This document shows positions 22,645-49,207 of a DNA stretch of 64,000 bases, piece by piece. The position numbers and the translations under genes are program-made. The notes below the pieces were generated by a model. The model searched no databases. It saw only the letters and a program-made list of their open reading frames with translations, and had not been told where the DNA came from. The stretch lies in the NCBI GenBank assembly GCA_964057225.1, contig OZ059898.1:10106001-10170000 (forward strand), written 5' to 3'. The DNA is from Auanema rhodensis (Eukaryota; Animalia; Nematoda). Every line of letters starts with the position of its first letter. Position 1 is the first letter of the stretch.

Positions 22645-22981
22645 CGTTCCATTCGGAAATCAATACGTAGCAGGCGGGTTAGAATCAGACGACATGAGGC
22701 TGAGAGAGGACGACACGCCCTTCATATGGAACACAGACTTCAGCTTTGCCTTATGGAATGACTATGGATGGTTGGTCTTCCTTTCTTAGCTCTCTTTCAC
22801 TTTATATCTTTATGTAGACTTATATAACTTATTGTAATCATGTAGACATAATAAACCTTTCTTTCTCGAGTCTTATGTTTATCCATTATGCTCTTTATCT
22901 ACCGCTACATCTGGAATACTATCACACTCATCTTGTAGGCTTTATTGGTCTATAGGATCGACGTGAGAGCATAACGGAACG
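22645..22981 (+). repeat. E3 5' LTR
   Basis: Direct repeat of 34877-35213; termini CGTTCC...GGAACG; TATATAA and AATAAA inside. Confidence 0.97.
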
Positions 22982-22994
22982 TGGAGGTTCCACC
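22982..22994 (+). promoter_or_regulatory. E3 primer-binding site (tRNA-Gln type)
   Basis: TGGAGGTTCCACC immediately after the LTR. Confidence 0.9.
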
Positions 22995-24390
22995 TCGAAC
23001 ATTTTATCTTGATTTCTTGACTATTTCTCTTATATTTTGTTATTTTCAATACAATTCATTGAATCTGAATTCTCTTATATCTCTAAACCATCTACTCCAT
23101 GTCTTAACACAATACGGTGGGGCCATCAACGTTTAAAAGGGAACAGATGCAAGGACCACTCCTTTTGGAGATGGATTTTATATTTTTTGAAACTGAAGTT
23201 ATATTTTCCCGTTTGTTCACAATTTTCTGTCTGTCTGAACCCAACAATTTTTATATCCTTGCTGTTAACATCGAATACTCTGTTACCCGAACTCGAAGCA
23301 TTTTTTGAGGACCCTAGGATGAATTAGTGAACAAATTCACCCAAGGATATTTTTTTATTGAGATTTATGCCCACACTTTCACCTTTTAAGGATTGATTTT
23401 GGCTTCGAGGAAAGAATAGCCACGGTTATTTCTTTATTTTTTGTGGATGAAACAATTTTGCGCACCAAATTGAGATTATTTCATATTTTGCGATCAGGAC
23501 TATTTTATTTTGCGTTACATTTCTGTTCAGACAACTTTTTGCCATTAACATCCAAAAATATTTTGATAACGCATTGAATTTACACGGGAAACCTCACCTA
23601 AATGGGAGGAATATTATGAAAAGTGAATTTTAAGATCGCTATAGTCCGAAAAATCCTGTACAATTTTACAAACTGAATTATTATTAGTGATTGTCTATCA
23701 GGTCGTGTTGGCTTAAGCATATCAGTTTGGATTTTCTCCCCTTACTATATGTCACCTTCCTCATACCGTTATTGTTGTTTTGAAGCATAAGACTCATTCC
23801 TAAACACCATAATTCTTTAAATATAGTTATTGTAATCTTTAGTCATCTATTCCTAGCCATAATTTTAAAACTAGATTTCTGATCATGATGGGACTACGGT
23901 ACTCATTCGTTTTTCAAATTGCTTCCTTAAAAGAGTAATGCTATTACGAATGTACATTATGAAAACCGCTAAAATCCTTTGAACATTTACCAAAGTCCAT
24001 TTTCGTGGCATTTTCGATCACTCGAGAGTCCAAGAAGATCAGAATCGTCAGAAAAAGAAAAAAAATGGGAATAAGGACTAATGAGATTGCTCAGGCATCA
24101 ATCAAGTGAGCACTGAACATTTTTGAACATATACAAACTGGTTGAATTATATACATTTAAGAATATTAAATTGGAAAGCGAACAAAGTCCAAATTTTCAT
24201 ACGGTAGTAGGCGGATCTCTGTTGATGGCCACAACTTAGATTCATTCCTTAACGCCGACTATACAAACCAGTTACTCACAGCTTTCTCACCCCTTTTCCA
24301 AAACTCCTTATCCATAACACTCATTAACGTCTCAAAATCCCCCACGTTACTAAACACTCAAGGTTTTTCCAAACCAAGAGCGCTACCAAA

Positions 24391-28161: not shown

Positions 28162-28294
28162 TTGCCATTACAACCGTTAGTGATAACGGTGAAAGGGTCA
28201 CAGAGTTAATACGTAGCACTCGTGGTGTGCTTCTATCTCGTCCTCTTGATTGATCTCTTTGATTGTTAAAATGGACTCTTCTTTGTCCGTTATG
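28059..28294 (-). repeat. 236-bp inverted copy of 25984-26219
   Basis: Reverse-complement match with one difference; track ORF 28049..28369 reproduces the Gag/signal-peptide sequence on the minus strand. Confidence 0.95.
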
Positions 28295-31200
28295 GTAGAC
28301 CCTACATATTCCTTGAAAGAATGGATAATAGCCCATCGTGAAAATTTTGAATTTTTCTTTAAAATTCAAATTTATGAGAAATCTTTAAGACATTTTCTCA
28401 AACAATATGATTTCCGTGATAAAGACAAAGCCATTTTACAATATGTTGCTCAAAGAGAATTAGCTTTAGCTACTAAAGCTGGAATATCTTATTTAACATC
28501 CAGGCAACTTCTTCAACAAATATCAGATCGGTTGACCGTTATTGAATTTGATCGGTTAATTCGTACAAAAGAAGGCACTTATCGAGAGCGTGCTGAAACT
28601 ATTGCTCTTGATTTAGCCAATACACCAGTTATAATTGAAGGCAAATTAACAGTTCCATCAAGACAAGAAATATTAAAAGCATTCGTAAAAATGCCACCAA
28701 TAAGGAAACAATTATTAACTGATCAAGAAGAAAGAAACAGCAAATTTATAAAAGATACAATTGACCTTGTACATGAGCTAAAAACTCTCGTTACGCTTAG
28801 AAGAAATAAAACAGCAGCTGATATTGATGACATAAAATTTATAAACCTTCCATCTTCACGAATGTTTGTACTTGATACTGATAAATTGTTCTATGACATC
28901 AAGAATAATTTTGGAATACCAATTGGACCACATCCCAAGCTTATAGAGCCCAACAACATCTCTAAGGACTTATTATTGGAAATATTTTTACCACTACTAA
29001 ACGATAATATTTTACCTAATACATCTAGTAGAATATCATCAGAACAGTTAAAAAGATTAATGACAGAGAAAATCCAACTTAAATCGTTGCAAACCACGAC
29101 GCGTGCGCCAAGCAACGCGGCAGGCGGCGCGGCCGAGATGGCAGCCCTCCCTATAATCGATCGTGAGGCGCTGATCACAACAGATCCCGCAATACTGCCG
29201 CAAACATCTACAAGCCCTCGGGCAGCCGCAGCAACTACCGCGCGCGCGCCTTCATCGATGGCCCAGCCCGAAACAACGGCGCGCCATACAACCGCAACGA
29301 CAACCGCGCGCGCAACAATATCGACCCGCGCGCCGCCAACTACTATTCTCTACGCTGTTCATCAAGACCAGCAAATTCCAATAATGGAAGAAACAACATA
29401 TACACCAATATCCTTGATTCGTAAACATAGAGCATCATCAACGCCTACAGCCACCGATATAGAGTCTGTACAGGCTAATGCTCAATACATTGCCACAAAA
29501 ATTGACTCCGAACAACAGTTTCGCCAAAACATAACAAGCAGAATTGCACAAGATCATTTGCAATATGCTACAACTATGATTCAAGAAGAACTGCAGAAAC
29601 ATTTTAAAGAGTCATACGAATCAATATGTGAGATCCAAAACAGGTATCTTGAATTATGGAGATCAATTTTACAAATTGAACCAACAATAGCTATGCGTAC
29701 AATACTGGGAAGAGAAGATATAGCCGCAAGATTTGTAGGCAGCGAGATATTACACATACATGTTTGCCCGGTAGTATTACAAAAGACTATATATCACAAT
29801 CACACTGTGAATGACACATGTTATCTCGAAACTCCAGTATTAACACAAGAAGGACAATTACTGTTTGCCGCACCAGGATCGAAAGACCTATTACCTCATG
29901 GTAAAGAAATTAACTGCGATCACGTACCAACAGACGTATGGTCAACAGACGGTGAATGGAAAGGAATTAATGGTACTGTAGACGTCAGTCTTATATCCAT
30001 GTGGGACGGACTTCATCATGAAAAGATCACGCCATTAAAATTCACCGGAGCACACTTATACACCAACTTATCATCTCGAGTGTACTCAATGACAACAGCC
30101 ATTGCTTATGGTGCTAGTTTAGCATCGATTCGTCAAAATCACGTGCTTCACACAATTCATCATGATCCAAAAATATCATCAGCATTCAGCATATTGAAGA
30201 AAAGTAGTGATTACATCTCCAAAGCCAATGAATTCACCAAAAGTACATGGAATTCTTTTGTCGATACAATAGCAGGAACGATTGAACGAACACTCATCAC
30301 TATTGGAGCAATTACAATTATTGTAGTTATACTGATCGTACTAGCCTTTGTTGCGAAAATATATTTCTTCAAACCAATAGGCATGCAAGTCATGCATATC
30401 GAACTCCGAGATCAAACCAACGATCTTCCCACATATGAAGAAACATTAGAGCTAGTAAGTCAACCTGATCAGCCAATACCAAGGAACATAATGAAACAGT
30501 ACTATCCATCGTTTCTCACTTTAGTTCCACTAGCTATGCCCATAGTTTGTTCAGTTTCCAATCGCAAAGACCAAACTCTACCACTGCTATTGATGACTGT
30601 TAACGATAGACTAATCCTAACTCTTTGGGATTCAGGATCATCGATTAGTTATATCAGACTCTCGACATTACATTACTTAACTTTGAATGATTTTGTAAAA
30701 AAGGATAAATCAGTTGCAACGACAGCAAACGGATCAGCATTTCGATTTCTGGGAACAATTGATTTAACCGTAGAAATCGCTGGATATGAAATAGATCATA
30801 CATTCTTCATTTCAAGAGATGAAGACTGTCCATCACCAGCATTAATTGGATTAGATTTTATGAAAACACTCGACCGTCAAAATATCGGGATGAAACTTCG
30901 ACCATTCAAACAAACGTTAGAAATCGGAAACCGCGTAGTACCGTTAGCCAATGGAAATAACGGGAATATTAGAAAAACATCATTTGTCATTAATTTGATA
31001 AACTTAAATCCACAATGTATCTTTCCTCATCAGACCTGTAGAATACCAGTAAGGTTAGCTGAACCCATATCACACAACGAAGTCGCCATGCTACAACCCG
31101 ATGAAGAAAAGACGATATCTACCACCTACGAAACAGCATTTCGAGACGTCAATTCAATTACCATGACATTCAAAAACAACACTGATCATCCTATAGATCT

Positions 31201-34200
31201 ATCACCCGGAAACATTATTGACAAAGCAAAAATAGGCGTACTGCCACAATACGAGATCTTTACGACCGAACACAATCCAGACTATATACCACCTGAAGCG
31301 GATTGGGAAAATAAATTACCTCATTTTCCTCAGGACTTTATGAACGATCTTGATTTAAAAGACGCCGACCTAACTAAAGAACAAAAAGATCTTCTTCAGC
31401 TTTGTATTCTACGTAATAGAGACGCATTTTTAAATGAGGATAAACGAATAGGACTATTTAAAGGACCTGTAGAGCATTCAATACCTCTAAGAACAGATAT
31501 GGACATGCCTAGACCGCGTATAACGCGTATCCCTATAGGCAAACAAGAAGAAGTCGAAAGACAGGTACAGGAGATGCTGAAGCAAAATATAATTGAACCA
31601 TCCACATCTCTTTTCAATAGTCCTGTAGTTTTAGTCAAAAAGAAAGATGAAACATTCCGTTTCGTAACCGATTTCCGTGCTCTAAATAACGTCACTCGCA
31701 AGCAAACGTACATCATACCTAACATCTCTGACATTGTCGATATGGCAGCCGGATCACAATATTTTTCTAACTTTGATTTAGTATCCGGATTCTTCCAAAT
31801 AGCATTAAAGAAATCAGATCGACCATTAACAGCATTTACAACAAACACCGGTACTTATCAATATAGAAGGATGCCTATGGGGTTATGTGGAGCGCCACAT
31901 ACCTTTCAAACAGCAGTACGATACCTTCAAAGCCGATGTAAATGCCGACTCTTTGTTTATTTGGATGATCTACTCGTTATATCAGACACTGCAGAACAAC
32001 ATCTTGACGATATAGCTGAGATTCTCAGAGAAGTAAAGAAATTAGGCATGAAAATAAAACTCAAGAAATGCGCTTTTGCAAGACCTGAAGTAAAATTTCT
32101 TGGTTTAATTGTCGGAAGAGATGGGGTCAAACCAGATCCACAGAAAGTATCCGCCATTCAAGACTATCCTGCTCCAAAGTCACCTACAGGAGTAAGAGCA
32201 TTTTTGGGAATGGTAGGATTCTTTCGGAAATTTATTAAGGATTTTGCACACATCGCAAGCCCTTTATACGACCTTACAAAACTTGATGTGGAATTTCAAT
32301 GGAATGACAGAAGTCAACAAGCTGTTGATACACTAAAAAGAAAATTGATCCAAGCACCGGTCTTAAAACCACCAAGATCAGACCGTATGTTCATTATAGA
32401 AAGTGACGGTAGTAATATCGCAGTGGGAGCAGTGTTATTACAACCTGAAGATCCCAATGAACCACTCAAAAACTTACATCCAATTGCATTTGCAAGCCGT
32501 AAACTTGTAAAAGCAGAACGTAACTATGCTCCTATTGAAATAGAAGCGTTAGGACTTGTATACGCTTTAGCTCAGTTTCGAACATATATACTTGGATCAC
32601 ATACAATCTGTATCACAGACCATCGACCATTAACAAGCTTATTGACTCGTAGAGACCTTTTTGGAAGACTAGCAAAATTTCAATTAGTCATACAGGAATA
32701 CGATATCGAGATAAGATACCGAGAAGGCAGACTAAACAAAGTCTGTGATGCTCTCTCACGATACATTGGAGATGAAGCAAACGATCCTAAACCGGAAAAG
32801 AAAAAGAAAACAAAAGAAATTCCGAAAGCTCAAATTAATTTCGTTAATGTACCTGACATTAGAGCAATTCAAGAGGATACACCTTGGATAAAGAGAACTA
32901 TCGCCGAAATAGAATACAGAGCGAAAAAGAACATGCTTTCTAATGATCGTTATTGTGTTATTGACAACATGTTATACACAAAACCAAGCAGAAAACGACC
33001 ACACCCAGCTTTGATTTTACCAAGGGAAAGCGAACTTATCAACAAGGTTATCGAAGAATTTCACGAAGACCCAGCAATTGGAGCACATCAAGGAATTAAC
33101 AAAACTAAAGAAGCCATACTACGAAGATTCTGCTGGACAAATATGCAAACGGACATAGCAATTTTTGTGAAACAATGCGTTAAATGCGCACAAAGGAAGA
33201 AAGATCCTCACGCTATGACCGTTCAGCCTATGGGTCAATTTGAAATACCATCAAAACCATTTGAGAGAATACATATGGATATTATGGGACCATTCCCTAC
33301 TTCAAAAAGAAACAACAATTATGTCCTAACAATTCAAGATTCATTCTCCAAATGGGCGACAACCATCGCTATACCAACAATTGTCACCGATGTCATCATT
33401 GATAGATTCCTCAGGAATTTCGTATATATTTTTGGACCACCAAATCGTTTAATAACCGATCGTGGATCTAATTTTGTATCAAAGAAATTTGAAGAAATGT
33501 GTGAAAAACTTGGCATTAAACACGAGCCAACACTCCCTCATCAGAAAAACTCTAATGGACAAGTCGAAAGACTACACAGAACGCTAGAAGAAGGATTAAC
33601 ACACTATCTCAACGAAGACGTAACTGATTGGGACATGTATTTACCAAAAATTACTTTTGCGTTAAATACAATAACACACGCAACCACAGGAATCTCTCCA
33701 TACATAGCATTATTCGGAAAAGAAAGTCGTATGAGATTAGACAAAGAATTATTCCCCGAGACATTACAACCAGAGATCTTGGAAGAAATTGAGAATACCG
33801 AATATATCAGAGGAGAAAGAAGAACCATAATTCAAGAAAATCTTGCAAAACATCAAGAAACCGCGAAGAGAAAACATGATGGACGACAACGAATAGAAGA
33901 AAGAGATATCCGAAAAGGAGACCAAGTTATGTTAGCAATTAAAGCGCATAAACCAGGTCAAAAGCTTCGCAAATCATATGATGGACCATTTGAAGTCATC
34001 AACGTTGAAGGAAACATGGTACAACTCAAGAATCCATTTGGAAAAATTCAAGACGTACACAAAGACAATCTCAAACTTTTTGAACGCAAAATGGACCATA
34101 CAATCGCTCAAAACACGCGATCAAATACAACGACTTATGACACGGACGACGACAGCGATATTGAGATCATAAAAGTCATAAATGGTAACGATAACTATGA

Positions 34201-34270
34201 CTCTACTGAAGAAACAGAACCAGAAGACCCATCGGACCAAAATTGGCTACCACCAAGAAGAAGACGATGA
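28250..34270 (+). CDS. pol: E3 polyprotein 3' part: C-terminal half of the glycoprotein, TM, protease, RT, RNase H, integrase
   Basis: TM ~30290-30369; PR LWDSGS (~30629); RT SPVVLVKKKD, FDLVSGFFQI, MPMGL, YLDD (31958-31969); RH ESDGS, TDHRPL; IN HHCC, HMDIMGP, TDRGSNF, GQVERLH, YDGPF. Confidence 0.96.
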   Translation: MISLIVKMDSSLSVMVDPTYSLKEWIIAHRENFEFFFKIQIYEKSLRHFLKQYDFRDKDKAILQYVAQRELALATKAGISYLTSRQLLQQISDRLTVIEFDRLIRTKEGTYRERAETIALDLANTPVIIEGKLTVPSRQEILKAFVKMPPIRKQLLTDQEERNSKFIKDTIDLVHELKTLVTLRRNKTAADIDDIKFINLPSSRMFVLDTDKLFYDIKNNFGIPIGPHPKLIEPNNISKDLLLEIFLPLLNDNILPNTSSRISSEQLKRLMTEKIQLKSLQTTTRAPSNAAGGAAEMAALPIIDREALITTDPAILPQTSTSPRAAAATTARAPSSMAQPETTARHTTATTTARATISTRAPPTTILYAVHQDQQIPIMEETTYTPISLIRKHRASSTPTATDIESVQANAQYIATKIDSEQQFRQNITSRIAQDHLQYATTMIQEELQKHFKESYESICEIQNRYLELWRSILQIEPTIAMRTILGREDIAARFVGSEILHIHVCPVVLQKTIYHNHTVNDTCYLETPVLTQEGQLLFAAPGSKDLLPHGKEINCDHVPTDVWSTDGEWKGINGTVDVSLISMWDGLHHEKITPLKFTGAHLYTNLSSRVYSMTTAIAYGASLASIRQNHVLHTIHHDPKISSAFSILKKSSDYISKANEFTKSTWNSFVDTIAGTIERTLITIGAITIIVVILIVLAFVAKIYFFKPIGMQVMHIELRDQTNDLPTYEETLELVSQPDQPIPRNIMKQYYPSFLTLVPLAMPIVCSVSNRKDQTLPLLLMTVNDRLILTLWDSGSSISYIRLSTLHYLTLNDFVKKDKSVATTANGSAFRFLGTIDLTVEIAGYEIDHTFFISRDEDCPSPALIGLDFMKTLDRQNIGMKLRPFKQTLEIGNRVVPLANGNNGNIRKTSFVINLINLNPQCIFPHQTCRIPVRLAEPISHNEVAMLQPDEEKTISTTYETAFRDVNSITMTFKNNTDHPIDLSPGNIIDKAKIGVLPQYEIFTTEHNPDYIPPEADWENKLPHFPQDFMNDLDLKDADLTKEQKDLLQLCILRNRDAFLNEDKRIGLFKGPVEHSIPLRTDMDMPRPRITRIPIGKQEEVERQVQEMLKQNIIEPSTSLFNSPVVLVKKKDETFRFVTDFRALNNVTRKQTYIIPNISDIVDMAAGSQYFSNFDLVSGFFQIALKKSDRPLTAFTTNTGTYQYRRMPMGLCGAPHTFQTAVRYLQSRCKCRLFVYLDDLLVISDTAEQHLDDIAEILREVKKLGMKIKLKKCAFARPEVKFLGLIVGRDGVKPDPQKVSAIQDYPAPKSPTGVRAFLGMVGFFRKFIKDFAHIASPLYDLTKLDVEFQWNDRSQQAVDTLKRKLIQAPVLKPPRSDRMFIIESDGSNIAVGAVLLQPEDPNEPLKNLHPIAFASRKLVKAERNYAPIEIEALGLVYALAQFRTYILGSHTICITDHRPLTSLLTRRDLFGRLAKFQLVIQEYDIEIRYREGRLNKVCDALSRYIGDEANDPKPEKKKKTKEIPKAQINFVNVPDIRAIQEDTPWIKRTIAEIEYRAKKNMLSNDRYCVIDNMLYTKPSRKRPHPALILPRESELINKVIEEFHEDPAIGAHQGINKTKEAILRRFCWTNMQTDIAIFVKQCVKCAQRKKDPHAMTVQPMGQFEIPSKPFERIHMDIMGPFPTSKRNNNYVLTIQDSFSKWATTIAIPTIVTDVIIDRFLRNFVYIFGPPNRLITDRGSNFVSKKFEEMCEKLGIKHEPTLPHQKNSNGQVERLHRTLEEGLTHYLNEDVTDWDMYLPKITFALNTITHATTGISPYIALFGKESRMRLDKELFPETLQPEILEEIENTEYIRGERRTIIQENLAKHQETAKRKHDGRQRIEERDIRKGDQVMLAIKAHKPGQKLRKSYDGPFEVINVEGNMVQLKNPFGKIQDVHKDNLKLFERKMDHTIAQNTRSNTTTYDTDDDSDIEIIKVINGNDNYDSTEETEPEDPSDQNWLPPRRRR
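28291..29243 (+). repeat. 953-bp direct duplication of 27105-28057
   Basis: Offset 1186, one difference seen; TATG microhomology at the junction. Confidence 0.95.
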
Positions 34271-34876
34271 AAGAAATAATTTCGAGATTGATAAAATTAT
34301 TGTAAAACTTTGTATCAACTCTCTTTTAAAAAACCAGAGCTATTAATATTATATCAATTTCAAATAATTTCCCGTAAATAAAGAAGAAATGAAAGATAAG
34401 AGACATTATATTGCATATTCATCTGAGCAACAGTCCTTATCAAGTAGTTAATGATTCAATTCCGGAAATTATATGAGATTTATTTTTATTTTGTTATTAT
34501 TACAATTCGCTTTGAATACGCTGAGGAAACATGCTAGCTCCATCGATAATATAGCATGACTCTCGTTTCTCTATACTCAAACAAGTTAGACATGCAGCGT
34601 CGTGCCTAAAAAGCTATTTTGCGCACTCTCGCTGACAAAATATAGCCCTGGTATTCTAAAAAATTGTTTTATTCCTTAATATTCATGTATTTTCAAATAA
34701 TTTTTATTAAATTCTTTTCAGATAATATTGTTTAACATTATATTGTAATTTATCTTTACTATTTTTATGTTAACATTGTAATTTTTATTTTTTAAAACTA
34801 AACCTTCTGCTACGATTGAAACAAGCCACATATTTTGCTATTCGCGAGGACGCGACATAAACTCGAAAAAATGGCA

Positions 34877-35213
34877 CGTTCCATTCGGAAATCAATACGT
34901 AGCAGGCGGGTTAGAATCAGACGACATGAGGCTGAGAGAGGACGACACGCCCTTCATATGGAACACAGACTTCAGCTTTGCCTTATGGAATGACTATGGA
35001 TGGTTGGTCTTCCTTTCTTAGCTCTCTTTCACTTTATATCTTTATGTAGACTTATATAACTTATTGTAATCATGTAGACATAATAAACCTTTCTTTCTCG
35101 AGTCTTATGTTTATCCATTATGCTCTTTATCTACCGCTACATCTGGAATACTATCACACTCATCTTGTAGGCTTTATTGGTCTATAGGATCGACGTGAGA
35201 GCATAACGGAACG
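34877..35213 (+). repeat. E3 3' LTR
   Basis: Direct repeat of 22645-22981, preceded by a weak PPT-like GAAAAAATGGCA. Confidence 0.97.
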
Positions 35214-36439: not shown

Positions 36440-36510
36440 TGCATCGGCCGGGAATCGAACCCGGGTCGCCCGCGTGGCAGGCGAGCATTCTACCACTGAA
36501 CCACCGATGC
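36440..36510 (-). tRNA. tRNA-Gly: tRNA-Gly(GCC); E4 is inserted 50 bp upstream
   Basis: Identical to the consensus copy. Confidence 0.97.
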
Positions 36511-36560: not shown

Positions 36561-36931
36561 CGTTACATATTGTTTCTTCCCGTCTTTTCATGGTCGGAAG
36601 ATATATGTACTTCTACCTTGTTCCTTAGGTAGGCAGACCCGAACGCCCCAATTTCCTTATTAAGACAAATACTTAAAGAGAAAAGGATTCATTAAGAAAA
36701 TACAATATAAGAATTACATTAAGAAAGAATATAAAGAGATATAATAAAGTATTAAATAGAGTATATATATAGATGATATAGAGATGAGACTCACATGGCT
36801 ATAAGACAACCTATCTGGGTTAGGCCAGAAGCAAGAGTGCCATGTGTGTCCCATGTTGTAGGCGGGGCTTGTTCAGGCTCCCGCTATTTGAATAGCGCGC
36901 ACATGTTTACCATGTGCTTGCAGATGTGACA
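36561..36931 (-). repeat. E4 3' LTR
   Basis: Direct repeat of 46285-46655; termini TGTCAC...GTAACG on the element strand. Confidence 0.97.
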
Positions 36932-37533: not shown

Positions 37534-40500
37534 TCAAGAAATTGTGATAACCGGAATAGATGTTGTCCGTTGGTAAGGTTTGACGAAGTCCTTGTGTACT
37601 CTTCTGCTCTTTTCTTTATCTGTTTGAACCACGACGAAAGATCTTTGAACTGCTGTAACTAAATAAGGCCCTTCGAATGAAGGTGTTAGTTTGTTTCGAG
37701 TAGAATTCACTTTTATCATAACTAAGTCATTAACCTGAATTTCTTTATTTTGTGTTCTATTTCGTGTATTGTCCCGTTGTTCATTCTTCTTTGTGCATGT
37801 TTCAATTCTATCTTTTACTATATTAGATGTGCTTTCATTTTGTATTAGCGATCTATTGACAAAATCTTCTGTAGGATTGGCTGGTTCTTCAGTTTGAAGA
37901 TTATTTCCAGGCAATTGATGGTCAATAGGAAGTCTTGCATCCCGACCAAATAATACAACATATGGACTAATAGATGTTGATGAGTTTGGTAACGTATTGA
38001 TCGCAAACATAACTTTAGGTAGGTGTATATCCCAGTTAGTTTGTTGTTCATTCACGAATGAAGAGAGAGCTTCTTCTAAAGTTCTATGAAGTCTCTCCAC
38101 TTGTCCATTAGCATTTTTATGATATGGTAGCGTAGTAGTGTGTTCAATTCCAAATTGTTTACACATAGCTTGAAATTCAGATGACAAAAAGCTACTACCA
38201 TTATCGGTTATCATACTCATTGGTGGTCCATATATGAAAACAAATCTAATTACAAACGCTTTTGTGATTTCAGTAGCCGTTTGTGTTATTAATGGGCAAG
38301 TTGTTCCCCATTTACTAAAAGCGTCTTGAATACTCAAGATGTATCGATGTCCATCATTAGTGCGAGGTAAAGGACCTAGTATATCTACATGAATACGATC
38401 AAATGGCTTTTCGGGTATAACAAATCTTCCCATAGGTTGAATATACGATTGGTGTGGGTTAGATTTCCTACTTGCACATTTTGTACAACGATTAATAAAT
38501 TCAGTTATTTGTGGAACCATATTAGTCCAAAAGAATCGTCGTCGAATCGCATCAGTAGTTTTATTTATACCTAGGTGTGCACCAATTTTGGAATCTTCAT
38601 GAAAAAACTTGATAACAACATCAGTTATTTTGTCGTTACGAGGCAAAATAATAGATGGTTTCAAATAATTTTTCGCTTGTTTTGCATGTAATATGCCTTC
38701 TCGTTCTTCATACCGGTCTGATATATTAGCCGGACAGTTATCATTATTAATTTGAGAAAGTGCTTCGCGAATCCAGGGAACTCCAGCTTGAACTTTCCGT
38801 ATTTCTTCACAATTTAGTTGGTCAATAGAAGAAATAGTTGTGATATGAGCAATAAAAGCATCAACAGGTTTTACTTTGTCCTTTGGTTTAGTAGGACGAC
38901 TGTCATTTGCTTCGTTTCCTATATACCTGGAGAGAGCATCACAGACACTGTTTAATTTGCCAGGACGATATTCAATCTTTATGTTGAAATCTTGTATCAT
39001 TAGTTGATACTTGGCTAATCTACCTATGAGATCTTTACGCGACATTAAACTGGTTAATGGTCGGTGATCTGTGATAACTGTGGTAGGTACTCCTAATACA
39101 TAGGTACGGAATTGTTGAAGAGCAAAGACTAAACCGAGTGCTTCAACTTCAATAGGAGGATATTTCCGTTCCGCTGGAGTCAACTTTCTACTAGCGAACG
39201 CAATCGGGTGTAATGGAGAATTTTTCTCTGCTGATTGCAATAAAACTGCTCCCACAGCGATCATACTGCCATCACTTTCTATAACAAAAGGTTGGTCTGC
39301 TTTAGGAGGTTTCAGTACAGGGGCAGTACACAGTAATGTTTTTAAAGTTTCAAATGCGTCTGCATGTTCCGATTTCCACTCAAAAGGAGTATCCTTATGT
39401 GTTAACTTATACAATGGCTCAGCTATTCCGGCATAATTTTGAATAAACCGTCGAAAATAGTTAGTCATACCTAGAAAGGATCTGACAGCCGTAACTGTGC
39501 TTGGATTTGGAAATTCGGAAACAGCCTGTATTTTAGCAGGATCTGGTTTAACACCATTTCTACCTATTATAAAACCCAAAAACTTTACTTCAGTGGCTGC
39601 AAAGCAACATTTAGATAACTTAATTTTTAACCCTAGTTCAGTGACCTTTTTCAGCACTTCTTGTATATCTCTTAAATGTTCTTCAGCTGAGTTCGAAATT
39701 ATTAGCAAATCATCTAGATATACAAACAGTTTGCATCTAACAAGAGATTGCAAGTATCGTACTGCGGATTGAAAAGTGTGTGGCGCTCCACACAATCCCA
39801 TAGGCATTCGGCAATACTGATAGGTACCTGATGGAGTGGTAAAAGCAGTTAAGTATCTATCTGAGCGTTTCAACGGTATTTGGAAGAAACCAGAAATGAG
39901 ATCAAAATTCGAAAAGAACTGAGCTCCAGCCGCTAAGTCTATGATATCAGGAATGTGTGGGATGCTGTATGTTTGTTTCTTAGTAACACTATTCAATGCT
40001 CTAAAGTCAGTAACGAACCGGAAAGAATTATCTTTCTTTTTCACAAGAACAACCGGACTAGTGAAAGTAGCCGTCGAATTTTCGATTATACCTTGCGACA
40101 ACATTTCTTTCACTTGCCGTTCTACTTCTTCTTGCTTACCCAATGGTACTCTGTAAGATCTACTTTTTGGAAAATCCATATCAGATCTTATAGGAATGGC
40201 ATGTTCAACTGGTCCGCAAAAGAGACCAATATTATGATCATGGTTGAAAAATGCCGTTTGGTTTTCCTTAATGATTGTGATCAGATTTTTCTTCATTTTA
40301 TGAGACAGAGTGCAAGAATTGAAGTTCAAATCATCCAAAAGATGCTGAGGAAAAGTTGGTAACTTATCTTCCCAATCAGCTTCAGGTGGAACATAATCGT
40401 TCATAATTTCTTTAGATGCTATAAGTCCTGAACCAATGTGGTCATTTTTATTAATTTTAATTGGCTTTGAAGAATTGTTTGATACTACCATAGTAATAGG

Positions 40501-43500
40501 AAAAGGTCCTATGGCGGCATCTGGAATTGATATAGGACCTGTGCTAGATTTTAAAAGAGCATATTGATCAAAATCTAATTCTGGTCCTGTTTGCAAAGAT
40601 ATGTGGGAGGTACTATGTGGTGGAACTGTTACTGTGGACAAACTTATGATATTTACTGTTTTAGTTGTGGTTTTATATGCAAAACAACCAGGTTTTACTA
40701 AGGGTGTTTCCATATTACCAACAATCAACTTTCCTTTACATAGTTTTAATGTAGTAAATATCTCTCTTTCTTCCAACGTACGCATAAAATCAGTACCAAG
40801 TAACATTTGTCCTGGACAGTCATTGTCTTCAGATATTAAAAATTCGTGTTCCACTTGGTAACCTGCTATACCCACATCTAACTTGCATTTTCCCACAAAG
40901 CGAAACTCTGATCCATTTGCAGTGGATGCAGATTTAGAATATTTTGTAAAATATTGTCTTCCAATATATGCCAATGTGGAGAACGGAATATATGAGACCG
41001 TAGCTCCAGAATCCCATAATGCTAACAGTCCTCTACCTTCAATGTCAATATGAACAAACGGTAACATGTGTCCATTTTTCTTTGTTGTTGTGTGACATAC
41101 AAAAGGTATGGCTAAAGGAATGTAAGTTATTATGGTGGGAAAATAGCTCCGCATCAATTCATCACTAACTGTTTCATGAATCTCATCTCCCTCAAGTGGT
41201 GGAGCTGTTGGGCTCAACATGATATGGTTTATTTTTAACATAGAAGTAGGGGAGAGATAACATTTTATAGTGAAATATAATGCTATCATTAGACATAATA
41301 TCAGAGTTATACAACCGATGGTAATGAGTGTTCGTTCAATTGAACCTATACAAAAGTCAATGAACAGATCCCAATTGGAGAAAACAATTTTCCTGGCATC
41401 TCTTATAAGTTTACTTCCTTTGAAGATGAAAGAGGAAATTTGAGGCCAATCACGTGAACGAGAAATTACGCGGAGAAGATCATGGTGAGGTGAAGTAGAT
41501 AAACTATAACCATAAGTTAATCCAATAGATAGGGCTAAGGATTTTTCAGTCGAATTTTCAAACAAATTCCGCCCTGTGAATCGAAGTTTACTCAATTCAG
41601 CATAATGATCATGTTTTTCTGAATGAATACTATCTACTTTATGTGTGTCACCTTTATAATCTCTCCATGTTCCATTTTCATACCAAATTTCTGTCTCTTT
41701 GTGTTCACAATTGATCTCATGTCCTTCAGTGCTCAAATCGTAGCTATCGATAGGAGCAAAGAATAATTGTTTATCGTGTGTTAAAACAGGGGTCTCTGCA
41801 TAACATTTATCATTGTAAGAATGATTACGATAAATGAAATGTGGTTCTATTTCCTGACAAGTTGTTATTTTTAAAACATTTCTTCCAACAAATCGGGCAA
41901 CGATATCATCCCGCTGAAGCATAGCTCGTACTCCTATTGTAGGATGTATACGTAATATAGCTTGCCAGCTTTTTACAGTTTCCATTTGAGATTTACAGAT
42001 GGTATGAAACTGTTGATGAAATTCGTCAATTATGGAGAGACGCGCTTTCTCAAACCCATAATTCAACTTATTATCTATTATCGTTTTAGTTTTATGCTCT
42101 GATTTGTGGAGAACATTGTCATATACTTCTGCTACATACAACTCTCGACCTCTCTCGTACGCATTAGGGGTAGGAGTTGTTAAACTACGAATTGTAGTTT
42201 TGGTGGAAGTTATTGGGGTTACAGTAGTATGCTGTACCATATTTTTATCAGTTGTGATTTGAGTTTTAACCCAACTTATGAATTCTAAAACTTCTGTTTT
42301 ATTGAATTTAGGATTTTCCTGTGGGTATTCGATGGACTGTGGAGGAAATCCATAATATGCTGTACTATTCTTTGTATAAAGGTTGTGATAGTCAGGCAGC
42401 TTGGATATAATTGCTAAATCTTGCTCTTGGTTATTTCTAACAGTAGCATCAGCTTTTTGTTGTCGACTGACTTGCATGTCGCGAGATATTTGTTCTTTTC
42501 CCGATTGTTGTTGGATCATGAATAACATGCCTTGAGCAGTTGCAATAATTTCAGATTGATTCATATTTCCACTGCGTTGTAATATAGATGGATATAAGGC
42601 TCTTGCCAACTGTTCGATTGATGGAACTGTTTGTGTACCATCAAGAATTGTGGCTTGATATACTACTGCGTGAGCCATTCCTCGAAAGAAATCTTCTATG
42701 GATGTTGTAGATTTCATCAAAGATCTTTTTAACCGAGGAACTTCTATACGACGAGCTACTTGAGTGATAAGATCATCCAATTTCATGCTATTAATCACCT
42801 GTCTAGTAGCCAGTTTAATTTCCTCTATACCCATACATTGTAAAATCAAAAGATTGGGATCTTTGAAATTATTAGACTTTGCCCAGTTAGTTATGTGATC
42901 TTTTGTCAATCCTAAACTAACAATTGTGTCAATGAACAGTGGATTATCTATCGCGAATTGGAGCAAACTCTCATAAGATGATGTAGCTGCATATCTCATA
43001 TATTTTGCGTAAAACTTAGTGATAGATGCAGATCCAAAAATGAAAGTAGGTCTTAGAAATGGAAACGCATATGGTTGGGATTTCGCATTAACAAAAAGAT
43101 AATCATCACTGAAAGAGCGATGTTTTTGAGGTAATGCATTACGTTTATTTCTGCGTCTATCAGCATTAAGCAAAGTATTGGAAAGATCAAGCAAATTATA
43201 AACACGGGGATATGCTGTGAATCGGATAATTGCCTCAGAGGATGATTGAAAAACAGCGAATTCGAAACAAGATTGAACGTGAGCGGATGTGGAATGATTT
43301 TGGAGAACAAAAGCGCTTTCAATAGAGTGAACTAGAAGAATATGATCACCCAACATGGCGGAGAAAGGGCCAAGTTTTTGATAGTGACAGACAACTGATG
43401 GGATAGGTGGTTGCCAGATAACTGCACCTTCACCAGTTGCACAAAACCCTTCATTTCCTTTACAATTATCAGTATTTATAAATAAGTCTGATACAATGTG

Positions 43501-45132
43501 ATCTTCTTTCAATCTAGTTATTATCCCTCGCTTCAATACAAATTGTTCAATTTCTACACATTCTTCAGTGGACCAAGAGCGAGTTGGATTATGCTCGTTT
43601 AATGGTGTTTCAAAAACTGAATGCTGTTGGGCATTCATGATTTTATCATTCCACATACGATTTCTATGTGCTCGAACACAATCTTTCTTATCTACTGTTT
43701 CAATATGAGAGAATGTGGTGTTACGATCTCTCAAAAACATGAAATCTCTCACACAGCTTTTATACTTTTTCACATAGCATTTCCATGCTTCCCATGACTC
43801 TATCTCAGCCTTTGGTAGATATATTTCTACCTCAACACTGTGAGCCTTTTCAATTTCTGCCTTATGGCAGCCTGTGACCACAGGAGGTGTTACTAATATA
43901 CCCCCTTCAGATTGAGCGCAAATCTGATATTTTGCCGACCCAAAGGGAAGGCATGAGAGTGCCAATAAAGTCAGGCACAACGTGACCGGTGGCATGAATG
44001 GGGTCGCTACGCTGTATACCCTTGAGTTACCATTCCCATTGGCTGATGGTCTTTGTCTTCTTGGGGAACTAGGCCTAGGGTTCCAAGACGAGCTATTGGC
44101 ATTTCTGCCATTCGCAAATGGGCGGTTTCCCGGGTTAGGACGCCTATTCATATTCCCGTTCTGCGAGTTATTATTATTATAACGTACGGCAGAAGGTCGC
44201 TCTCTCTCTCGCTCATAATCATTAGAGCCATTATTGTGCTGAGTCCAGTTATTATTTTTTTTATAATTTTTATAATTTTTATTATTATTATTATTCCTAC
44301 TTCTTTCTCTTTCTTCACTAAAGCTTAATTTATGCTGTAAAGCATTTATGAGCTCCTTCAAGGTGCTAGTGTCTTCATTTCTTTTCATGAAGCTATTTCG
44401 AACGCCTTCTTCAAACCTAGCTAATTTCTTAGCTTGTTCATAAGTGGCGGGGTTTTTAGTTAAAACCGCAATACCCAGCTCCTCTTTTAAACCATTTAAA
44501 AATGCCGTTTTCAACATTGGTTCCCGCTCGGGATCCATTGGTGACATTATGGTGCTTGCCATTCTCTCTAATTCCATACTAAAATCAAGAACAGATTTAT
44601 CTCCTTGTTGTACTCGATGAATAAGCGCTATGGTGAAATTTTTATCAGTTTTAGGCGCTAAAAGCTCAGTGAGCTGATCCATCAAAACAATCCATGGGCC
44701 ATTAGTTCTTATGCCACTAGGAATACTATTATACAAGGAGAGAGCTGTTTCATTTGATTCCAAAAGAAGAGGCAAAATTAATAGTCTCTCAGGTAAGCTT
44801 AGATTCATAACATTAAAAAATCTATTTAAAGATTCAACAAAAGAACGAAAGCTACGAGAGCCGTCATACCTGGGACAGAGATGGCAATTTAAAATAGTTG
44901 CCATATTTCTAGAGGGTGGAGCAACATTAGAATTAGGAGATGGAGAGGTAGGAGTCATTTTTCTTTCAAAAGCTTTAGTTATAGCAGCGGCCCACCGACT
45001 TGGTGATCTATTTCGTACTTCAGTAGGTGCCCGAGGTGTTTCCTCAGTGATGGCCTTTCTGCTTTTACTTCTCGTTCTAATTGTCAGAGAAGAAGAATGA
45101 GAAGAAGAAGAGGAATCACCTTCTTCTCTCAA
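37534..45132 (-). CDS. gag-env-pol: E4 polyprotein: Gag - signal peptide - class III-like glycoprotein - TM - PR - RT - RNase H - IN
   Basis: CPRYDGS and FLNGLK (Gag); VTLCLTLLALSCLPFGSA|KYQIC; RRNKR; IHPTIGVRAMLQRDDIVARFVG; TM TLITIGCITLILCLMIALYF; LWDSGA; YLDD (39709-39720); ESDGS; HVDILGP, TDNGSSF, GQVERLH, FEGPY. The track start codon is TTG. Confidence 0.96.
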   Translation of the reverse strand: MREEGDSSSSSHSSSLTIRTRSKSRKAITEETPRAPTEVRNRSPSRWAAAITKAFERKMTPTSPSPNSNVAPPSRNMATILNCHLCPRYDGSRSFRSFVESLNRFFNVMNLSLPERLLILPLLLESNETALSLYNSIPSGIRTNGPWIVLMDQLTELLAPKTDKNFTIALIHRVQQGDKSVLDFSMELERMASTIMSPMDPEREPMLKTAFLNGLKEELGIAVLTKNPATYEQAKKLARFEEGVRNSFMKRNEDTSTLKELINALQHKLSFSEERERSRNNNNNKNYKNYKKNNNWTQHNNGSNDYERERERPSAVRYNNNNSQNGNMNRRPNPGNRPFANGRNANSSSWNPRPSSPRRQRPSANGNGNSRVYSVATPFMPPVTLCLTLLALSCLPFGSAKYQICAQSEGGILVTPPVVTGCHKAEIEKAHSVEVEIYLPKAEIESWEAWKCYVKKYKSCVRDFMFLRDRNTTFSHIETVDKKDCVRAHRNRMWNDKIMNAQQHSVFETPLNEHNPTRSWSTEECVEIEQFVLKRGIITRLKEDHIVSDLFINTDNCKGNEGFCATGEGAVIWQPPIPSVVCHYQKLGPFSAMLGDHILLVHSIESAFVLQNHSTSAHVQSCFEFAVFQSSSEAIIRFTAYPRVYNLLDLSNTLLNADRRRNKRNALPQKHRSFSDDYLFVNAKSQPYAFPFLRPTFIFGSASITKFYAKYMRYAATSSYESLLQFAIDNPLFIDTIVSLGLTKDHITNWAKSNNFKDPNLLILQCMGIEEIKLATRQVINSMKLDDLITQVARRIEVPRLKRSLMKSTTSIEDFFRGMAHAVVYQATILDGTQTVPSIEQLARALYPSILQRSGNMNQSEIIATAQGMLFMIQQQSGKEQISRDMQVSRQQKADATVRNNQEQDLAIISKLPDYHNLYTKNSTAYYGFPPQSIEYPQENPKFNKTEVLEFISWVKTQITTDKNMVQHTTVTPITSTKTTIRSLTTPTPNAYERGRELYVAEVYDNVLHKSEHKTKTIIDNKLNYGFEKARLSIIDEFHQQFHTICKSQMETVKSWQAILRIHPTIGVRAMLQRDDIVARFVGRNVLKITTCQEIEPHFIYRNHSYNDKCYAETPVLTHDKQLFFAPIDSYDLSTEGHEINCEHKETEIWYENGTWRDYKGDTHKVDSIHSEKHDHYAELSKLRFTGRNLFENSTEKSLALSIGLTYGYSLSTSPHHDLLRVISRSRDWPQISSFIFKGSKLIRDARKIVFSNWDLFIDFCIGSIERTLITIGCITLILCLMIALYFTIKCYLSPTSMLKINHIMLSPTAPPLEGDEIHETVSDELMRSYFPTIITYIPLAIPFVCHTTTKKNGHMLPFVHIDIEGRGLLALWDSGATVSYIPFSTLAYIGRQYFTKYSKSASTANGSEFRFVGKCKLDVGIAGYQVEHEFLISEDNDCPGQMLLGTDFMRTLEEREIFTTLKLCKGKLIVGNMETPLVKPGCFAYKTTTKTVNIISLSTVTVPPHSTSHISLQTGPELDFDQYALLKSSTGPISIPDAAIGPFPITMVVSNNSSKPIKINKNDHIGSGLIASKEIMNDYVPPEADWEDKLPTFPQHLLDDLNFNSCTLSHKMKKNLITIIKENQTAFFNHDHNIGLFCGPVEHAIPIRSDMDFPKSRSYRVPLGKQEEVERQVKEMLSQGIIENSTATFTSPVVLVKKKDNSFRFVTDFRALNSVTKKQTYSIPHIPDIIDLAAGAQFFSNFDLISGFFQIPLKRSDRYLTAFTTPSGTYQYCRMPMGLCGAPHTFQSAVRYLQSLVRCKLFVYLDDLLIISNSAEEHLRDIQEVLKKVTELGLKIKLSKCCFAATEVKFLGFIIGRNGVKPDPAKIQAVSEFPNPSTVTAVRSFLGMTNYFRRFIQNYAGIAEPLYKLTHKDTPFEWKSEHADAFETLKTLLCTAPVLKPPKADQPFVIESDGSMIAVGAVLLQSAEKNSPLHPIAFASRKLTPAERKYPPIEVEALGLVFALQQFRTYVLGVPTTVITDHRPLTSLMSRKDLIGRLAKYQLMIQDFNIKIEYRPGKLNSVCDALSRYIGNEANDSRPTKPKDKVKPVDAFIAHITTISSIDQLNCEEIRKVQAGVPWIREALSQINNDNCPANISDRYEEREGILHAKQAKNYLKPSIILPRNDKITDVVIKFFHEDSKIGAHLGINKTTDAIRRRFFWTNMVPQITEFINRCTKCASRKSNPHQSYIQPMGRFVIPEKPFDRIHVDILGPLPRTNDGHRYILSIQDAFSKWGTTCPLITQTATEITKAFVIRFVFIYGPPMSMITDNGSSFLSSEFQAMCKQFGIEHTTTLPYHKNANGQVERLHRTLEEALSSFVNEQQTNWDIHLPKVMFAINTLPNSSTSISPYVVLFGRDARLPIDHQLPGNNLQTEEPANPTEDFVNRSLIQNESTSNIVKDRIETCTKKNEQRDNTRNRTQNKEIQVNDLVMIKVNSTRNKLTPSFEGPYLVTAVQRSFVVVQTDKEKSRRVHKDFVKPYQRTTSIPVITIS

Positions 45133-46271
45133 AAATTCAAAAGGAGAGAGGTAGGTGGATGGAGTATTTAAGTTTTTAGAATTAAATTCAAAAACTTGGC
45201 GTACCTCTGGTGATCCTTGTTCCTGATCTTTGTTTTCCTCGCTGATGTCCGAGTCCGACAGGGTGGCTGGTGAATACAGTTAGATGAATATAAGAGCGCG
45301 TACTGGAAGCAACTAGACTCCAGTAAAAACGTTTGTGACAATGGCGTCTGATGAAGGAGGATCGTTGAAGCTTCAAGCTCCGCCTCCAGCCATGTGTCAC
45401 GACACCAGATGTTAGCGCTTATGGTAAACAACCATTGACCGTCTGTCGTGATATTTGAATATTATAATCACTTATGTCAGCTTAGAGACAAATAAGGAAT
45501 CACAGATGGTGCCTTAAGCCTGTTTGAAAACTTTTGAATTTTAACAGCTGTTATTGACTACACATATCGAACAGCTGGTACGCGTGGGCCAACTATTTGA
45601 ATGTGAGTAAGCTTAAAGTAAACAAAAATGTCTCATCTCGTATATTAAGTTCAATTTTATAAAGTTTATTAAGATTTGTAGAAAGAATTTCAAAATAAAT
45701 CTTAATTAAGATAATTTTTAATTTAATTTCAAAAGATTTAGAAGGTAATTTAAGATTGATATAGGAATTTAAATTCAGTAATCTGTCAATAATATAGGAA
45801 AAAGGAAACGTTGGCAGACGTAGAGTGGACTTGGGTGGGTAGGAATTTAAATATTCTTATTATCTCTGAACTAATAAGAAAAGAGTTAACAGGAGTAGAA
45901 CCCTGATGAACCCTTGGATGTGAATCAAAATCAAAAATCGTAAATAAAATTATCCCAACAGCCTCCAGCTTCCAAACAACTCAGCTAAAAAGTGAGCTCT
46001 GTTGCCACACTGGACATTCACATCATAAAGTAATGAATCAAAATAGCACGCGCGTGCATAACAAAAAGGTAACGCTCGTCAAAACTATTGTCTGATAGTT
46101 TCCCCAAACGTCTCAGACACCTCCCAGTTTTCGTTGAGCGGAGGAGAAGTGGTAGCCAAAATAATTTTTGGGGAAATCATGGTGCACGGCTCGGTTACTC
46201 CTCACTGTTGGGTAATTAAGTCCAAAAGTCTCGTAAACTTGCTGTCAATAAATTAACAGTAAAGTAAGCAA

Positions 46272-46284
46272 GGTGGAACCTCCA
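46272..46284 (-). promoter_or_regulatory. E4 primer-binding site (tRNA-Gln type)
   Basis: TGGAGGTTCCACC immediately after the 5' LTR. Confidence 0.9.
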
Positions 46285-46655
46285 CGTTACATATTGTTTC
46301 TTCCCGTCTTTTCATGGTCGGAAGATATATGTACTTCTACCTTGTTCCTTAGGTAGGCAGACCCGAACGCCCCAATTTCCTTATTAAGACAAATACTTAA
46401 AGAGAAAAGGATTCATTAAGAAAATACAATATAAGAATTACATTAAGAAAGAATATAAAGAGATATAATAAAGTATTAAATAGAGTATATATATAGATGA
46501 TATAGAGATGAGACTCACATGGCTATAAGACAACCTATCTGGGTTAGGCCAGAAGCAAGAGTGCCATGTGTGTCCCATGTTGTAGGCGGGGCTTGTTCAG
46601 GCTCCCGCTATTTGAATAGCGCGCACATGTTTACCATGTGCTTGCAGATGTGACA
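46285..46655 (-). repeat. E4 5' LTR
   Basis: Direct repeat of 36561-36931. Confidence 0.97.
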
Positions 46656-47643
46656 CTACTGATTTGAAGAGAATTGTAAGTTTAAGAAAATAATTAAAAA
46701 TAAGTTCTCTCTACTATTAACTGATTGTCGGCTAAAATATGGTAACAGTTTTTTTTAAAAGTTTCCATGATTAGGATTAAACAAAAAAAAGAATTAAAAA
46801 GAAACACTTCTTGTTTACTTACTTGATTATACTACTTGAAATTCGAAAAAAAGTAAAAAACAATTGAGAAAGCGACATAAACAGTTGAACGATTTGAAGA
46901 GAATTGTAAGTTTAAGAAAAGAATTAAAGTTTAGCTTTGTCTACTATTAACTGATTATCGGCTAAAATAAGATAACAGTTTTTATTAAAAGTTTTCATGA
47001 TTAGGATTAAACAAAAAAAAGAATCAAAAAGAAACAATTCTTGTTTACTTATTTGATTATAATACTTGAAATTGCAAGAACAGTAGAATAAAATAGAGAA
47101 AGCGACGAAAAAAGTTGAACGATTTGAAGAGAATTGTAAGTTTTAGAAAAGAATTACAGTTCAGCTATCTCTACTATTAACTGATTATCAGCTAAAATAA
47201 GGTAACAGTTTTTATTAAAGCGAGTAAAACTGTTGAACGATTTGAAGACAATCGGCTAAAATAAGGTAACAGTTTTTATTAAAGCGAGTAAAACTGTTGA
47301 ACGATTTGAAGAAAATTGTAAGTTTTAGAAAATAATTAAAAATAAGTTCTCTCTACTATTAACTGATTGTCGGCTAAAATATGGTAACAGTTTTTATGAA
47401 AAGTTTCCATGATAAGGATTAAACAAAGAAAAAAGAATCAAAGAGAAACACTTCTTGTTTACTTATTTGATTATAATACTTGAAATTCCGAAAACAGTAG
47501 AATAAAATGAAGAAAGCGACAAAAACAGTTGAACGATTTGAAGAGAATTATAAGTTTAAGAAAAGATTTAAAGTTTAGCTTTGTCTACTATTAACTGATT
47601 ATCGGCTGAAATATGGTGACAGTTTTTTATTAAAAGTTTCCAT
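46656..47643. repeat. Satellite segment 4 (no tRNA; contains truncated monomers)
   Basis: Same monomer. Confidence 0.95.
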
Positions 47644-49207
47644 CAAAACTATTGTCTGATAGTTTCCCCAAACGTCTCAGACACCTCCCAGTTTTCGTTG
47701 AGCGGAGGAGAAGTGGTAGCCAAAATAATTTTTGGGGAAATCATGGTGCACGGCTCGGTTACTCCTCACTGTTGGGTAATTAAGTCCAAAAGTCTCGTAA
47801 ACTTGCTGTCAATAAATTAACAGTAAAGTAAGCAAGGTGGAACCTCCACGTTACATATTGTTTCTTCCCGTCTTTTCATGGTCGGAAGATATATGTACTT
47901 CTACCTTGTTCCTTAGGTAGGCAGACCCGAACGCCCCAATTTCCTTATTAAGACAAATACTTAAAGAGAAAAGGATTCATTAAGAAAATACAATATAAGA
48001 ATTACATTAAGAAAGAATATAAAGAGATATAATAAAGTATTAAATAGAGTATATATATAGATGATATAGAGATGAGACTCACATGGCTATAAGACAACCT
48101 ATCTGGGTTAGGCCAGAAGCAAGAGTGCCATGTGTGTCCCATGTTGTAGGCGGGGCTTGTTCAGGCTCCCGCTATTTGAATAGCGCGCACATGTTTACCA
48201 TGTGCTTGCAGATGTGACACTACTGATTTGAAGAGAATTGTAAGTTTAAGAAAATAATTAAAAATAAGTTCTCTCTACTATTAACTGATTGTCGGCTAAA
48301 ATATGGTAACAGTTTTTTTTAAAAGTTTCCATGATTAGGATTAAACAAAAAAAAGAATTAAAAAGAAACACTTCTTGTTTACTTACTTGATTATACTACT
48401 TGAAATTCGAAAAAAAGTAAAAAACAATTGAGAAAGCGACATAAACAGTTGAACGATTTGAAGAGAATTGTAAGTTTAAGAAAAGAATTAAAGTTTAGCT
48501 TTGTCTACTATTAACTGATTATCGGCTAAAATAAGATAACAGTTTTTATTAAAAGTTTTCATGATTAGGATTAAACAAAAAAAAGAATCAAAAAGAAACA
48601 ATTCTTGTTTACTTATTTGATTATAATACTTGAAATTCCAAGAACAGTAGAATAAAATAGAGAAAGCGACGAAAAAAGTTGAACGATTTGAAGAGAATTG
48701 TAAGTTTTAGAAAAGAATTACAGTTCAGCTATCTCTACTATTAACTGATTATCAGCTAAAATAAGGTAACAGTTTTTATTAAAGCGAGTAAAACTGTTGA
48801 ACGATTTGAAGACAATCGGCTAAAATAAGGTAACAGTTTTTATTAAAGCGAGTAAAACTGTTGAACGATTTGAAGAAAATTGTAAGTTTTAGAAAATAAT
48901 TAAAAATAAGTTCTCTCTACTATTAACTGATTGTCGGCTAAAATATGGTAACAGTTTTTATGAAAAGTTTCCATGATTAGGATTAAACAAAGAAAAAAGA
49001 ATCAAAGAGAAACACTTCTTGTTTACTTATTTGATTATAATACTTGAAATTCCGAAAACAGTAGAATAAAATGAAGAAAGCGACAAAAACAGTTGAACGA
49101 TTTGAAGAGAATTATAAGTTTAAGAAAAGATTTAAAGTTTAGCTTTGTCTACTATTAACTGATTATCGGCTGAAATATGGTGACAGTTTTTTATTAAAAG
49201 TTTCCAT
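47644..49207. repeat. 1564-bp tandem duplication of 46080-47643 (E4 leader fragment + PBS + LTR + flanking satellite)
   Basis: Constant offset of 1564, including the CTAC junction and the rare truncated monomers. Confidence 0.93.
47849..48219 (-). repeat. Third E4 LTR copy, with PBS at 47836-47848
   Basis: Matches 46285-46655. Confidence 0.95.

Follow-up and report, generated by a model that had tools for sequence, protein, structure and literature searches.

In 2022, Sacco et al. reportedly gave the name NERVs to nematode elements that are said to carry one continuous gag-env-pro-pol ORF. The order GAG-ENV-POL, with a gB-type ENV, is in print for elements of Nematoda, Bryozoa and Platyhelminthes (Chary and Hayashi, eLife 2026, PMC13524379), and the portions of that paper available to us cite Sacco 2022 for ENV before POL in a nematode metavirus. 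A tRNA-Gln primer is given there for eight of the 16 nematode rows with a primer call, while 20 of the 36 nematode rows carry no call. A word search of its main text returned no statement of one shared frame and no mention of splicing, and the parts examined hold nothing on tRNA-adjacent insertion. Other systems resemble these elements in part, as far as the consulted sections of the respective papers describe them. Atlas virus and nematode belpaoviruses encode Gag, Pol and Env as one stop-free polyprotein and have identical LTRs, with a Bel/Pao pol, env in the last position and a class II phlebovirus-like fusogen (PMC9094657). Cer1 of C. elegans is a nematode LTR element with no stop between gag and pol and also with a spliced RNA; it has no envelope, and the spliced product, CERV, is an RNA export factor (PMC10309623). 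Foamy viruses, which are true retroviruses with env after pol, are the precedent for a Pol made from a spliced RNA without Gag (PMC7828637). Searching the literature, with few subscription journals covered, for env between gag and pol or for spliced pol in gypsy elements gave nothing specific apart from the foamy-virus review, and the same holds for planarian Burro elements. We found no account, in the literature examined, of how a single Gag-Env-Pol frame produces capsid in excess of enzyme and holds Pol away from the membrane.

We analysed a window of 64,000 nucleotides from the nematode Auanema rhodensis (contig OZ059898.1), in which four elements, E1 to E4, are inserted in one repeat array. 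E4 adds one intact element to the published GAG-ENV-POL group. A preliminary description of this DNA had presented the layout as a departure from what is established; the order is already in print for nematodes, bryozoans and flatworms (PMC13524379, seen in part), and it is therefore not new. Like the nematode "ancient errantiviruses" of that paper, E4 combines this gene order with a gB-type env and a Ty3/gypsy pol. It shares the single stop-free polyprotein and identical LTRs with Atlas virus, and differs from it in the class of pol, the position of env and the class of fusogen. Cer1, which had been suggested for comparison, is the wrong one because its post-pol ORF encodes CERV and not an Env (PMC10309623, in the part consulted). 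We consider E4 to be an intact GAG-ENV-POL Ty3/gypsy provirus with a gB-related ectodomain that would be threaded into the ER, processed as proposed below and accompanied by a second RNA, and give this reading a probability of roughly 0.8; what has been observed directly in it is the reading frame, the order of its domains, the pair of hydrophobic segments, the LTRs and the sequence relationship to class III fusogens.

The E4 polyprotein frame (37534-45132, minus strand) comprises 2532 residues with zero stops, and both its translation and the order of its Pfam domains bear out the uninterrupted Gag-Env-Pol frame of the preliminary description. Its proposed start did not stand: the codon at 45132 is TTG and no demonstrated start, the frame being stop-free from 45279 (2581 codons) and having its first in-frame ATG at 44958, from which 2474 aa would be made. 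The two other frames of the env part contain 68 and 95 stops, and the probability of an open frame of this size arising by chance is about 10^-78. Slippery heptamers are present, and a frameshift is not needed. Gag (43999-44958, minus strand) consists of a capsid-like domain at residues 130-217 (Pfam Retrotrans_gag, E=0.004, below the cut-off) and an Asn/Arg-rich tail; no CCHC knuckle was found in it, and its capsid region is 37% identical to that of E3. After env, Pfam places the protease at residues 1361-1451, reverse transcriptase (RT) at 1697-1856, RNase H at 1919-2049 and integrase at 2169-2338. This Pol (37537-41052, minus strand), with LWDSGA in the protease and YLDD in the RT, has the Ty3 RT/RNase H as its nearest solved structures (E about 1e-83). 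The protease-RT-RNase H-integrase order and the Ty3-like RT identify E4 as Ty3/gypsy. We had also considered an assignment to the Belpaoviridae (Atlas, Cer13), and rejected it on the Pfam order: env does not follow integrase, and no Pao-type domains occur in E4, compared with three of the 15 long relatives scanned that have them. In a tree of 24 RTs, E4 grouped with E3 (support 99/95) and two further relatives; the deep forks of this tree are open, and one of its rows has a named source. The reading of E4 as Ty3/gypsy, with an envelope-type glycoprotein encoded in frame after Gag and before the protease, is supported.

The frame is enclosed by a 5' LTR (46285-46655, minus strand) that starts with TGTCAC and ends with GTAACG, and a 3' LTR (36561-36931, minus strand) preceded by a purine run. 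The two LTRs have 0 mismatches in 371 bp, and a 4-bp target duplication, GTAG, is found on both outer flanks. With its LTRs, primer site, purine tract and target duplication, E4 has the structure of a Ty3/gypsy (Metaviridae) element, and we conclude that it is a young, intact and recently inserted provirus. The usual 3' end of an LTR is CA; the LTRs of E2, E3 and E4 end in AACG, and those of E3 have CG at both termini. The first 12 bases of the primer-binding site (46272-46284, minus strand) are the tRNA-Gln site of the published nematode GAG-ENV-POL elements, and this 12-mer is identical to that of rows Clat_4 and Ctro_1 in supplementary file 1 of PMC13524379, in the part of that file compared.

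The ectodomain, about 867-869 aa long, had been called Cys-rich. This does not hold overall, with 16 Cys in 869 aa against 21 in the 1233 aa of Pol; 10 of the 16 are found in the first 259 aa and only one in the central 346 aa. The Env N-half (43153-43929, minus strand), which by the family profile corresponds to the fusion-domain region of a class III glycoprotein, carries these 10 Cys, which are common to E3, and is followed by a furin-like RNKR. A Cys-poor spacer with a second furin-like site, RLKR, and a Thr-rich stretch comes next (42103-43140, minus strand), and then the C-half (41347-42102, minus strand), corresponding by Pfam and by the profile to the central helix and crown region. 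Pfam matched the C-half to Monjiviricetes_fusion (E=1.4e-8, above the cut-off) and to Glycoprotein_B (E=3e-5); with the full-length query, the Glycoprotein_B match covered residues 1021-1112 (E=5e-4, below the cut-off). A family profile built from E4 env and 30 relatives (31 sequences) was run against solved-structure chains. Its C-half matched herpesvirus gB chains (best E=1.7e-12), and its N-half matched chains named "Glycoprotein" or RABV-G (E=1e-5 to 0.01). The chains named "Glycoprotein" are presumably rabies-type G. Solved-structure searches with one or two E4-type env sequences had zero matches. Since both monomer structure models of E4 env failed (pLDDT 31.7 and 29.2), the class III fold assignment rests on sequence profiles, which identify the ectodomain as a relative of the class III viral fusogens. 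Its look-alikes in the Atlas were nearly all viral glycoprotein clusters, at a low recognition score.

Comparison with the published nematode rows was made by hand count, not by computed alignment, against two of the 18 Nematoda_C1 rows (Kluz_1 and Clat_4), and E4 has the C1 cysteine pattern. The spacing of the eight Cys in env domains I-II is 8,25,40,32,7,18,40 in E4, 8,25,41,31,7,17,40 in Clat_4 and, similarly, 8,26,41,31,7,18,38 in Kluz_1 (PMC13524379, rows seen in part). The env spacer of E4 is long, unlike that of the published nematode GAG-ENV-POL elements in the part of the same source examined. It measures 346-371 aa, compared with 8-504 aa (median 53.5) in 86 relatives among the matches listed. 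We considered spacer length as a novelty and discarded it, as the spacer exceeds 100 aa in 33 of these 86 listed relatives and is longer than that of E4 in four. No usable Atlas match, and no Pfam match better than E=0.01, was obtained for the spacer.

To place the env domain, we searched 1.84 billion representative proteins with HMMER, which gave 255 env relatives at E<=0.001, of which 150 were listed; with one further protein, P0004, they make up a set of 151 predicted proteins, many of them fragments. Env precedes a pol domain in one chain in 51 of the 151 listed relatives, 11 of which have Gag first (Gag-env-pol) and 40 of which show env then pol. The remainder are 12 with Gag then env, 83 with env only and five with pol before env; a pol domain is absent from 95 of the 151. 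When 15 long relatives were scanned with Pfam, 11 had the fusion family before RT or RNase H, three were Pao-type with env last, and one had no env match at threshold. Word-index protein searches gave one, zero and zero matches, the one named relative being from Diploscapter pachys, and a metagenome scan matched 56 stretches, none of which was confirmed. Three Pao-type polyproteins, P0035, P0077 and P0084, carry a related class III env after integrase, and for this reason one env family appears in two retroelement superfamilies. In P0039, where env precedes pol, an RRM domain (residues 500-555) lies upstream of env.

The related element E3 (22645-35213, plus strand) has identical LTRs and is broken within env into two open pieces. 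In the first (24328-28161), one frame runs through Gag, the signal-like segment and the N-half of env; in the second (28250-34270), one frame runs through the env C-half, the helix and Pol. The pieces are separated by a region in which 953 bp are duplicated and 236 bp recur as an inverted copy. E3 and E4 are 67% identical in RT-RNase H and 32-37% in the env halves. The preliminary description had given E3 the same layout, in which removal of the duplication and inversion would restore a 2897-aa ORF. The layout stands, with both junctions in frame, each in its own piece. It had also asked for a check on copies lacking the insert; E3 and 51 of the 151 relatives listed carry env before pol. These comparisons support the view that an in-frame env between Gag and protease is a conserved arrangement and not a one-off capture.

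Hydropathy along the E4 chain is highest in two segments, residues 379-397 (from about 43998) and residues 1269-1287 (41328-41272), where the preliminary description had located a signal-like segment and a transmembrane helix. The former belongs to an internal signal-peptide-like segment (residues 379-401; 43930-43998, minus strand), identified by hydropathy and present at the same position in E3, and the latter is the predicted transmembrane helix (41272-41328, minus strand), with a mean hydropathy of 2.63 over 19 residues. Among the matches listed, a hydrophobic segment just before env was found in 53 of the 57 relatives with more than 150 residues upstream and in two of 114 control windows; env and pol are separated by a helix in 45 of 46 relatives. 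The topology with two membrane segments is well supported by these counts. They agree with the arrangement given in the preliminary description, in which Gag and Pol would be cytosolic and the ectodomain would lie in the ER lumen. The furin-like site after the Env N-half is found in both E4 and E3. In E4 and E3, motifs of the type V/I-N-x-I/V occur immediately ahead of the signal-like segment and again immediately behind the helix; in P0004 such a motif follows the helix. We take these motifs to resemble gypsy protease sites. A pattern widened post hoc, after E4, E3 and P0004 had been inspected, was found ahead of the segment in 14 of 57 relatives, against a background of 6.5%, and behind the helix in 15 of 46, against 10.5%, among the matches listed. 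The motif is in this sense enriched over background in the sequences, yet confined to a minority of relatives, the tested windows of 43 of the 57 and 31 of the 46 listed being without it.

From these features we infer the following processing. The ectodomain would be threaded into the ER between the two membrane segments, with Gag and Pol staying in the cytosol. Signal peptidase would free the Env N-terminus near residue 401, and furin would cut Env at RNKR (661-664). The E4 protease could cut the V/I-N-x-I/V-like sites that flank each segment towards the cytosol, so that Gag would come free of its anchor and Pol of the Env tail. Trimers of Env would let budded particles fuse with other cells, for example germ cells. 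A splice that joins an upstream exon to sequence close ahead of the protease gene is likely to provide a second RNA without Gag and Env, and the output of E4 therefore need not be 1:1:1.

Such a splice, which removes gag and env, is real in contigs from three of the four public runs that hold part of E4; the four runs belong to one study, and their RNA status is guessed, none being recorded as RNA. The contigs jump from 45205 to 41111, skipping 4093 nt with GT..AG on the E4 strand (donor AG/GTACGC, acceptor CCTTTAG/C). The upstream exon (45205-45291, minus strand) ends at the donor in phase 0 of the polyprotein frame, and the skipped segment (41112-45204, minus strand) comprises all of gag and env. 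To judge from the literature this splice may be new, and it makes the question of capsid over enzyme testable. The preliminary description had expected a fixed 1:1:1 stoichiometry; an obligatory output of this kind is doubtful because the splice removes gag and env. Further on, the spliced contigs pass at a 15-nt near-repeat from about 41070 directly to about 37780. Because this second jump has no GT-AG or other splice signals, we assign the contigs to a pol-deleted sister copy a few percent diverged from E4; one contig differs from the window copy in 20 of 897 letters. The pol deletion corresponds to 37778-41083, and one run, X4, has a further skip of about 40 nt. No run contigs cross the unspliced gag-env-pol junctions, and gag and env are thinly covered in these runs, which has no bearing on expression.

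The splice may be a side product, of a pol-deleted sister copy or of host surveillance, that gives no working protein, the single polyprotein being what the element uses. The spliced form is seen only together with the pol deletion, its join shifts the frame relative to Pol (4093 = 3n+1), and one run has a further short skip. The donor argues against this reading: a count over both strands of the window finds its 8-mer, AGGTACGC, at three places, one per Gag-bearing element (E1, E3 and E4), each of them preceding the capsid position and lying in phase 0, where 0.009-0.017 copies per region are expected. As E1 and E3 are related, the repeat amounts to about one independent case. We regard a side product as quite possible, at somewhat less than even odds.

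A second alternative is that Pol is made mainly from the spliced RNA, in the manner of foamy viruses, with the unspliced RNA giving chiefly Gag and Env and the continuous frame being incidental or of minor use. The splice excises exactly gag and env, and its acceptor is followed after 41 nt by a Pol-frame ATG that precedes the protease active site. E3, too, has an AG at this codon position, there with a Pol-frame ATG 2 nt further on, and the donor common to the three elements sits in each within a 435-973-nt stretch free of ATG. However, two out-of-frame ATGs precede the Pol ATG downstream of the E4 acceptor, E1 and E3 are relatives of E4 and not independent witnesses, and zero contigs join the spliced exon to an intact pol, all three entering the pol-deleted form; in this E4 departs from the foamy viruses (PMC7828637, in the part seen). 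The env-pol junction is moreover in frame in 51 relatives among the matches listed, which argues that the fused chain is used. We therefore hold a mainly spliced Pol to be doubtful. The notion that what lies between Gag and protease is no envelope, and instead a membrane protein captured from the host or a one-off passenger, for which one could cite the weak full-length gB match, the empty one- and two-sequence structure searches and the fact that the central 346 aa match only one of the 151 relatives listed, is already largely refuted, and we consider it highly improbable, given the 255 relatives with a conserved position, the profile matches to viral class III fusogens, the nearly all viral, if low-scoring, Atlas look-alikes and the match to the published nematode env rows (PMC13524379, rows consulted).

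The array into which these elements are inserted (array parts of 2933-64000) is a satellite of ~231-bp units with 33 interspersed tRNA-Gly genes; these lie without exception on the minus strand, at a density of about one per 1020 bp, and 32 are GCC and one ACC. Ty3 of yeast, which has no envelope, inserts at a fixed short distance upstream of tRNA genes. The 3' LTR of E4 ends 50 bp upstream of the 5' end of a tRNA-Gly(GCC) gene (36440-36510, minus strand), and E2 ends 62 bp upstream of another. The single visible flank of E1 matches the E2 target-site position in 24 of its 28 best matches, and E3 lies elsewhere in the repeat, in the opposite orientation. The distance to the tRNA-Gly gene downstream is thus 50-62 bp for two of the four elements and probably for a third. 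Of all array positions, 6.8% fall within the 70 bp preceding a tRNA gene, for which the chance of at least two in three such insertions is 0.013 and of at least three in four 0.0012, figures to be read with a 70-bp limit set afterwards and with a sequence preference within the repeat that would give the same picture. A habit of landing just upstream of tRNA genes is likely and may be new to the literature, where our search, covering few subscription journals, found no report of tRNA-upstream integration or tRNA arrays in nematodes. In Dictyostelium, DGLT-A inserts 13-33 bp and TRE5 about 50 nt upstream of tRNA genes, similar to E4 and E2; those elements are without an envelope, whereas the present case is limited to a single array with four insertions, of which one is not adjacent to a tRNA gene (PMC5633606, as far as seen). 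The shared insertion distance makes tRNA targeting testable. That a programmed gag/env splice serves a separate Pol RNA and that insertions are also aimed 50-62 bp upstream of tRNA genes is, taken together, unlikely. If true, a Ty3/gypsy lineage would have escaped 1:1:1 output in the way of foamy viruses, and the family would be an animal retroelement that bears an envelope and directs its integration to tRNA genes.

E2 itself (13731-17883) is a 4.15-kb LTR element with 413-bp LTRs (2 mismatches) and a primer site of the same kind as that of E4. It has no match to Gag, Env or Pol, its 267-codon frame (14347-15150) belongs to no known family, and it is likely to be non-autonomous. The stretch 46079-49206 is a 1564-bp tandem duplication (2 mismatches) that contains a third copy of the E4 LTR, its primer site and satellite; it represents either unequal exchange or an assembly artefact. 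A 124-codon frame without a Pfam family runs antisense to the E1 leader (1229-1603). The 5' part of the gag frame, itself without stops, is covered by long stretches free of ATG in E1 (1-973, at least 973 nt), E3 (24226-25083, 859 nt) and E4 (44959-45392, 435 nt), where 11.6, 9.5 and 6.7 ATGs, respectively, are expected from base composition and fewer under a dinucleotide model. A non-ATG start or a trans-spliced leader is possible for the gag frame of these three elements. In this part of the frame, the differences between E1 and E3 are greatest at third codon positions.
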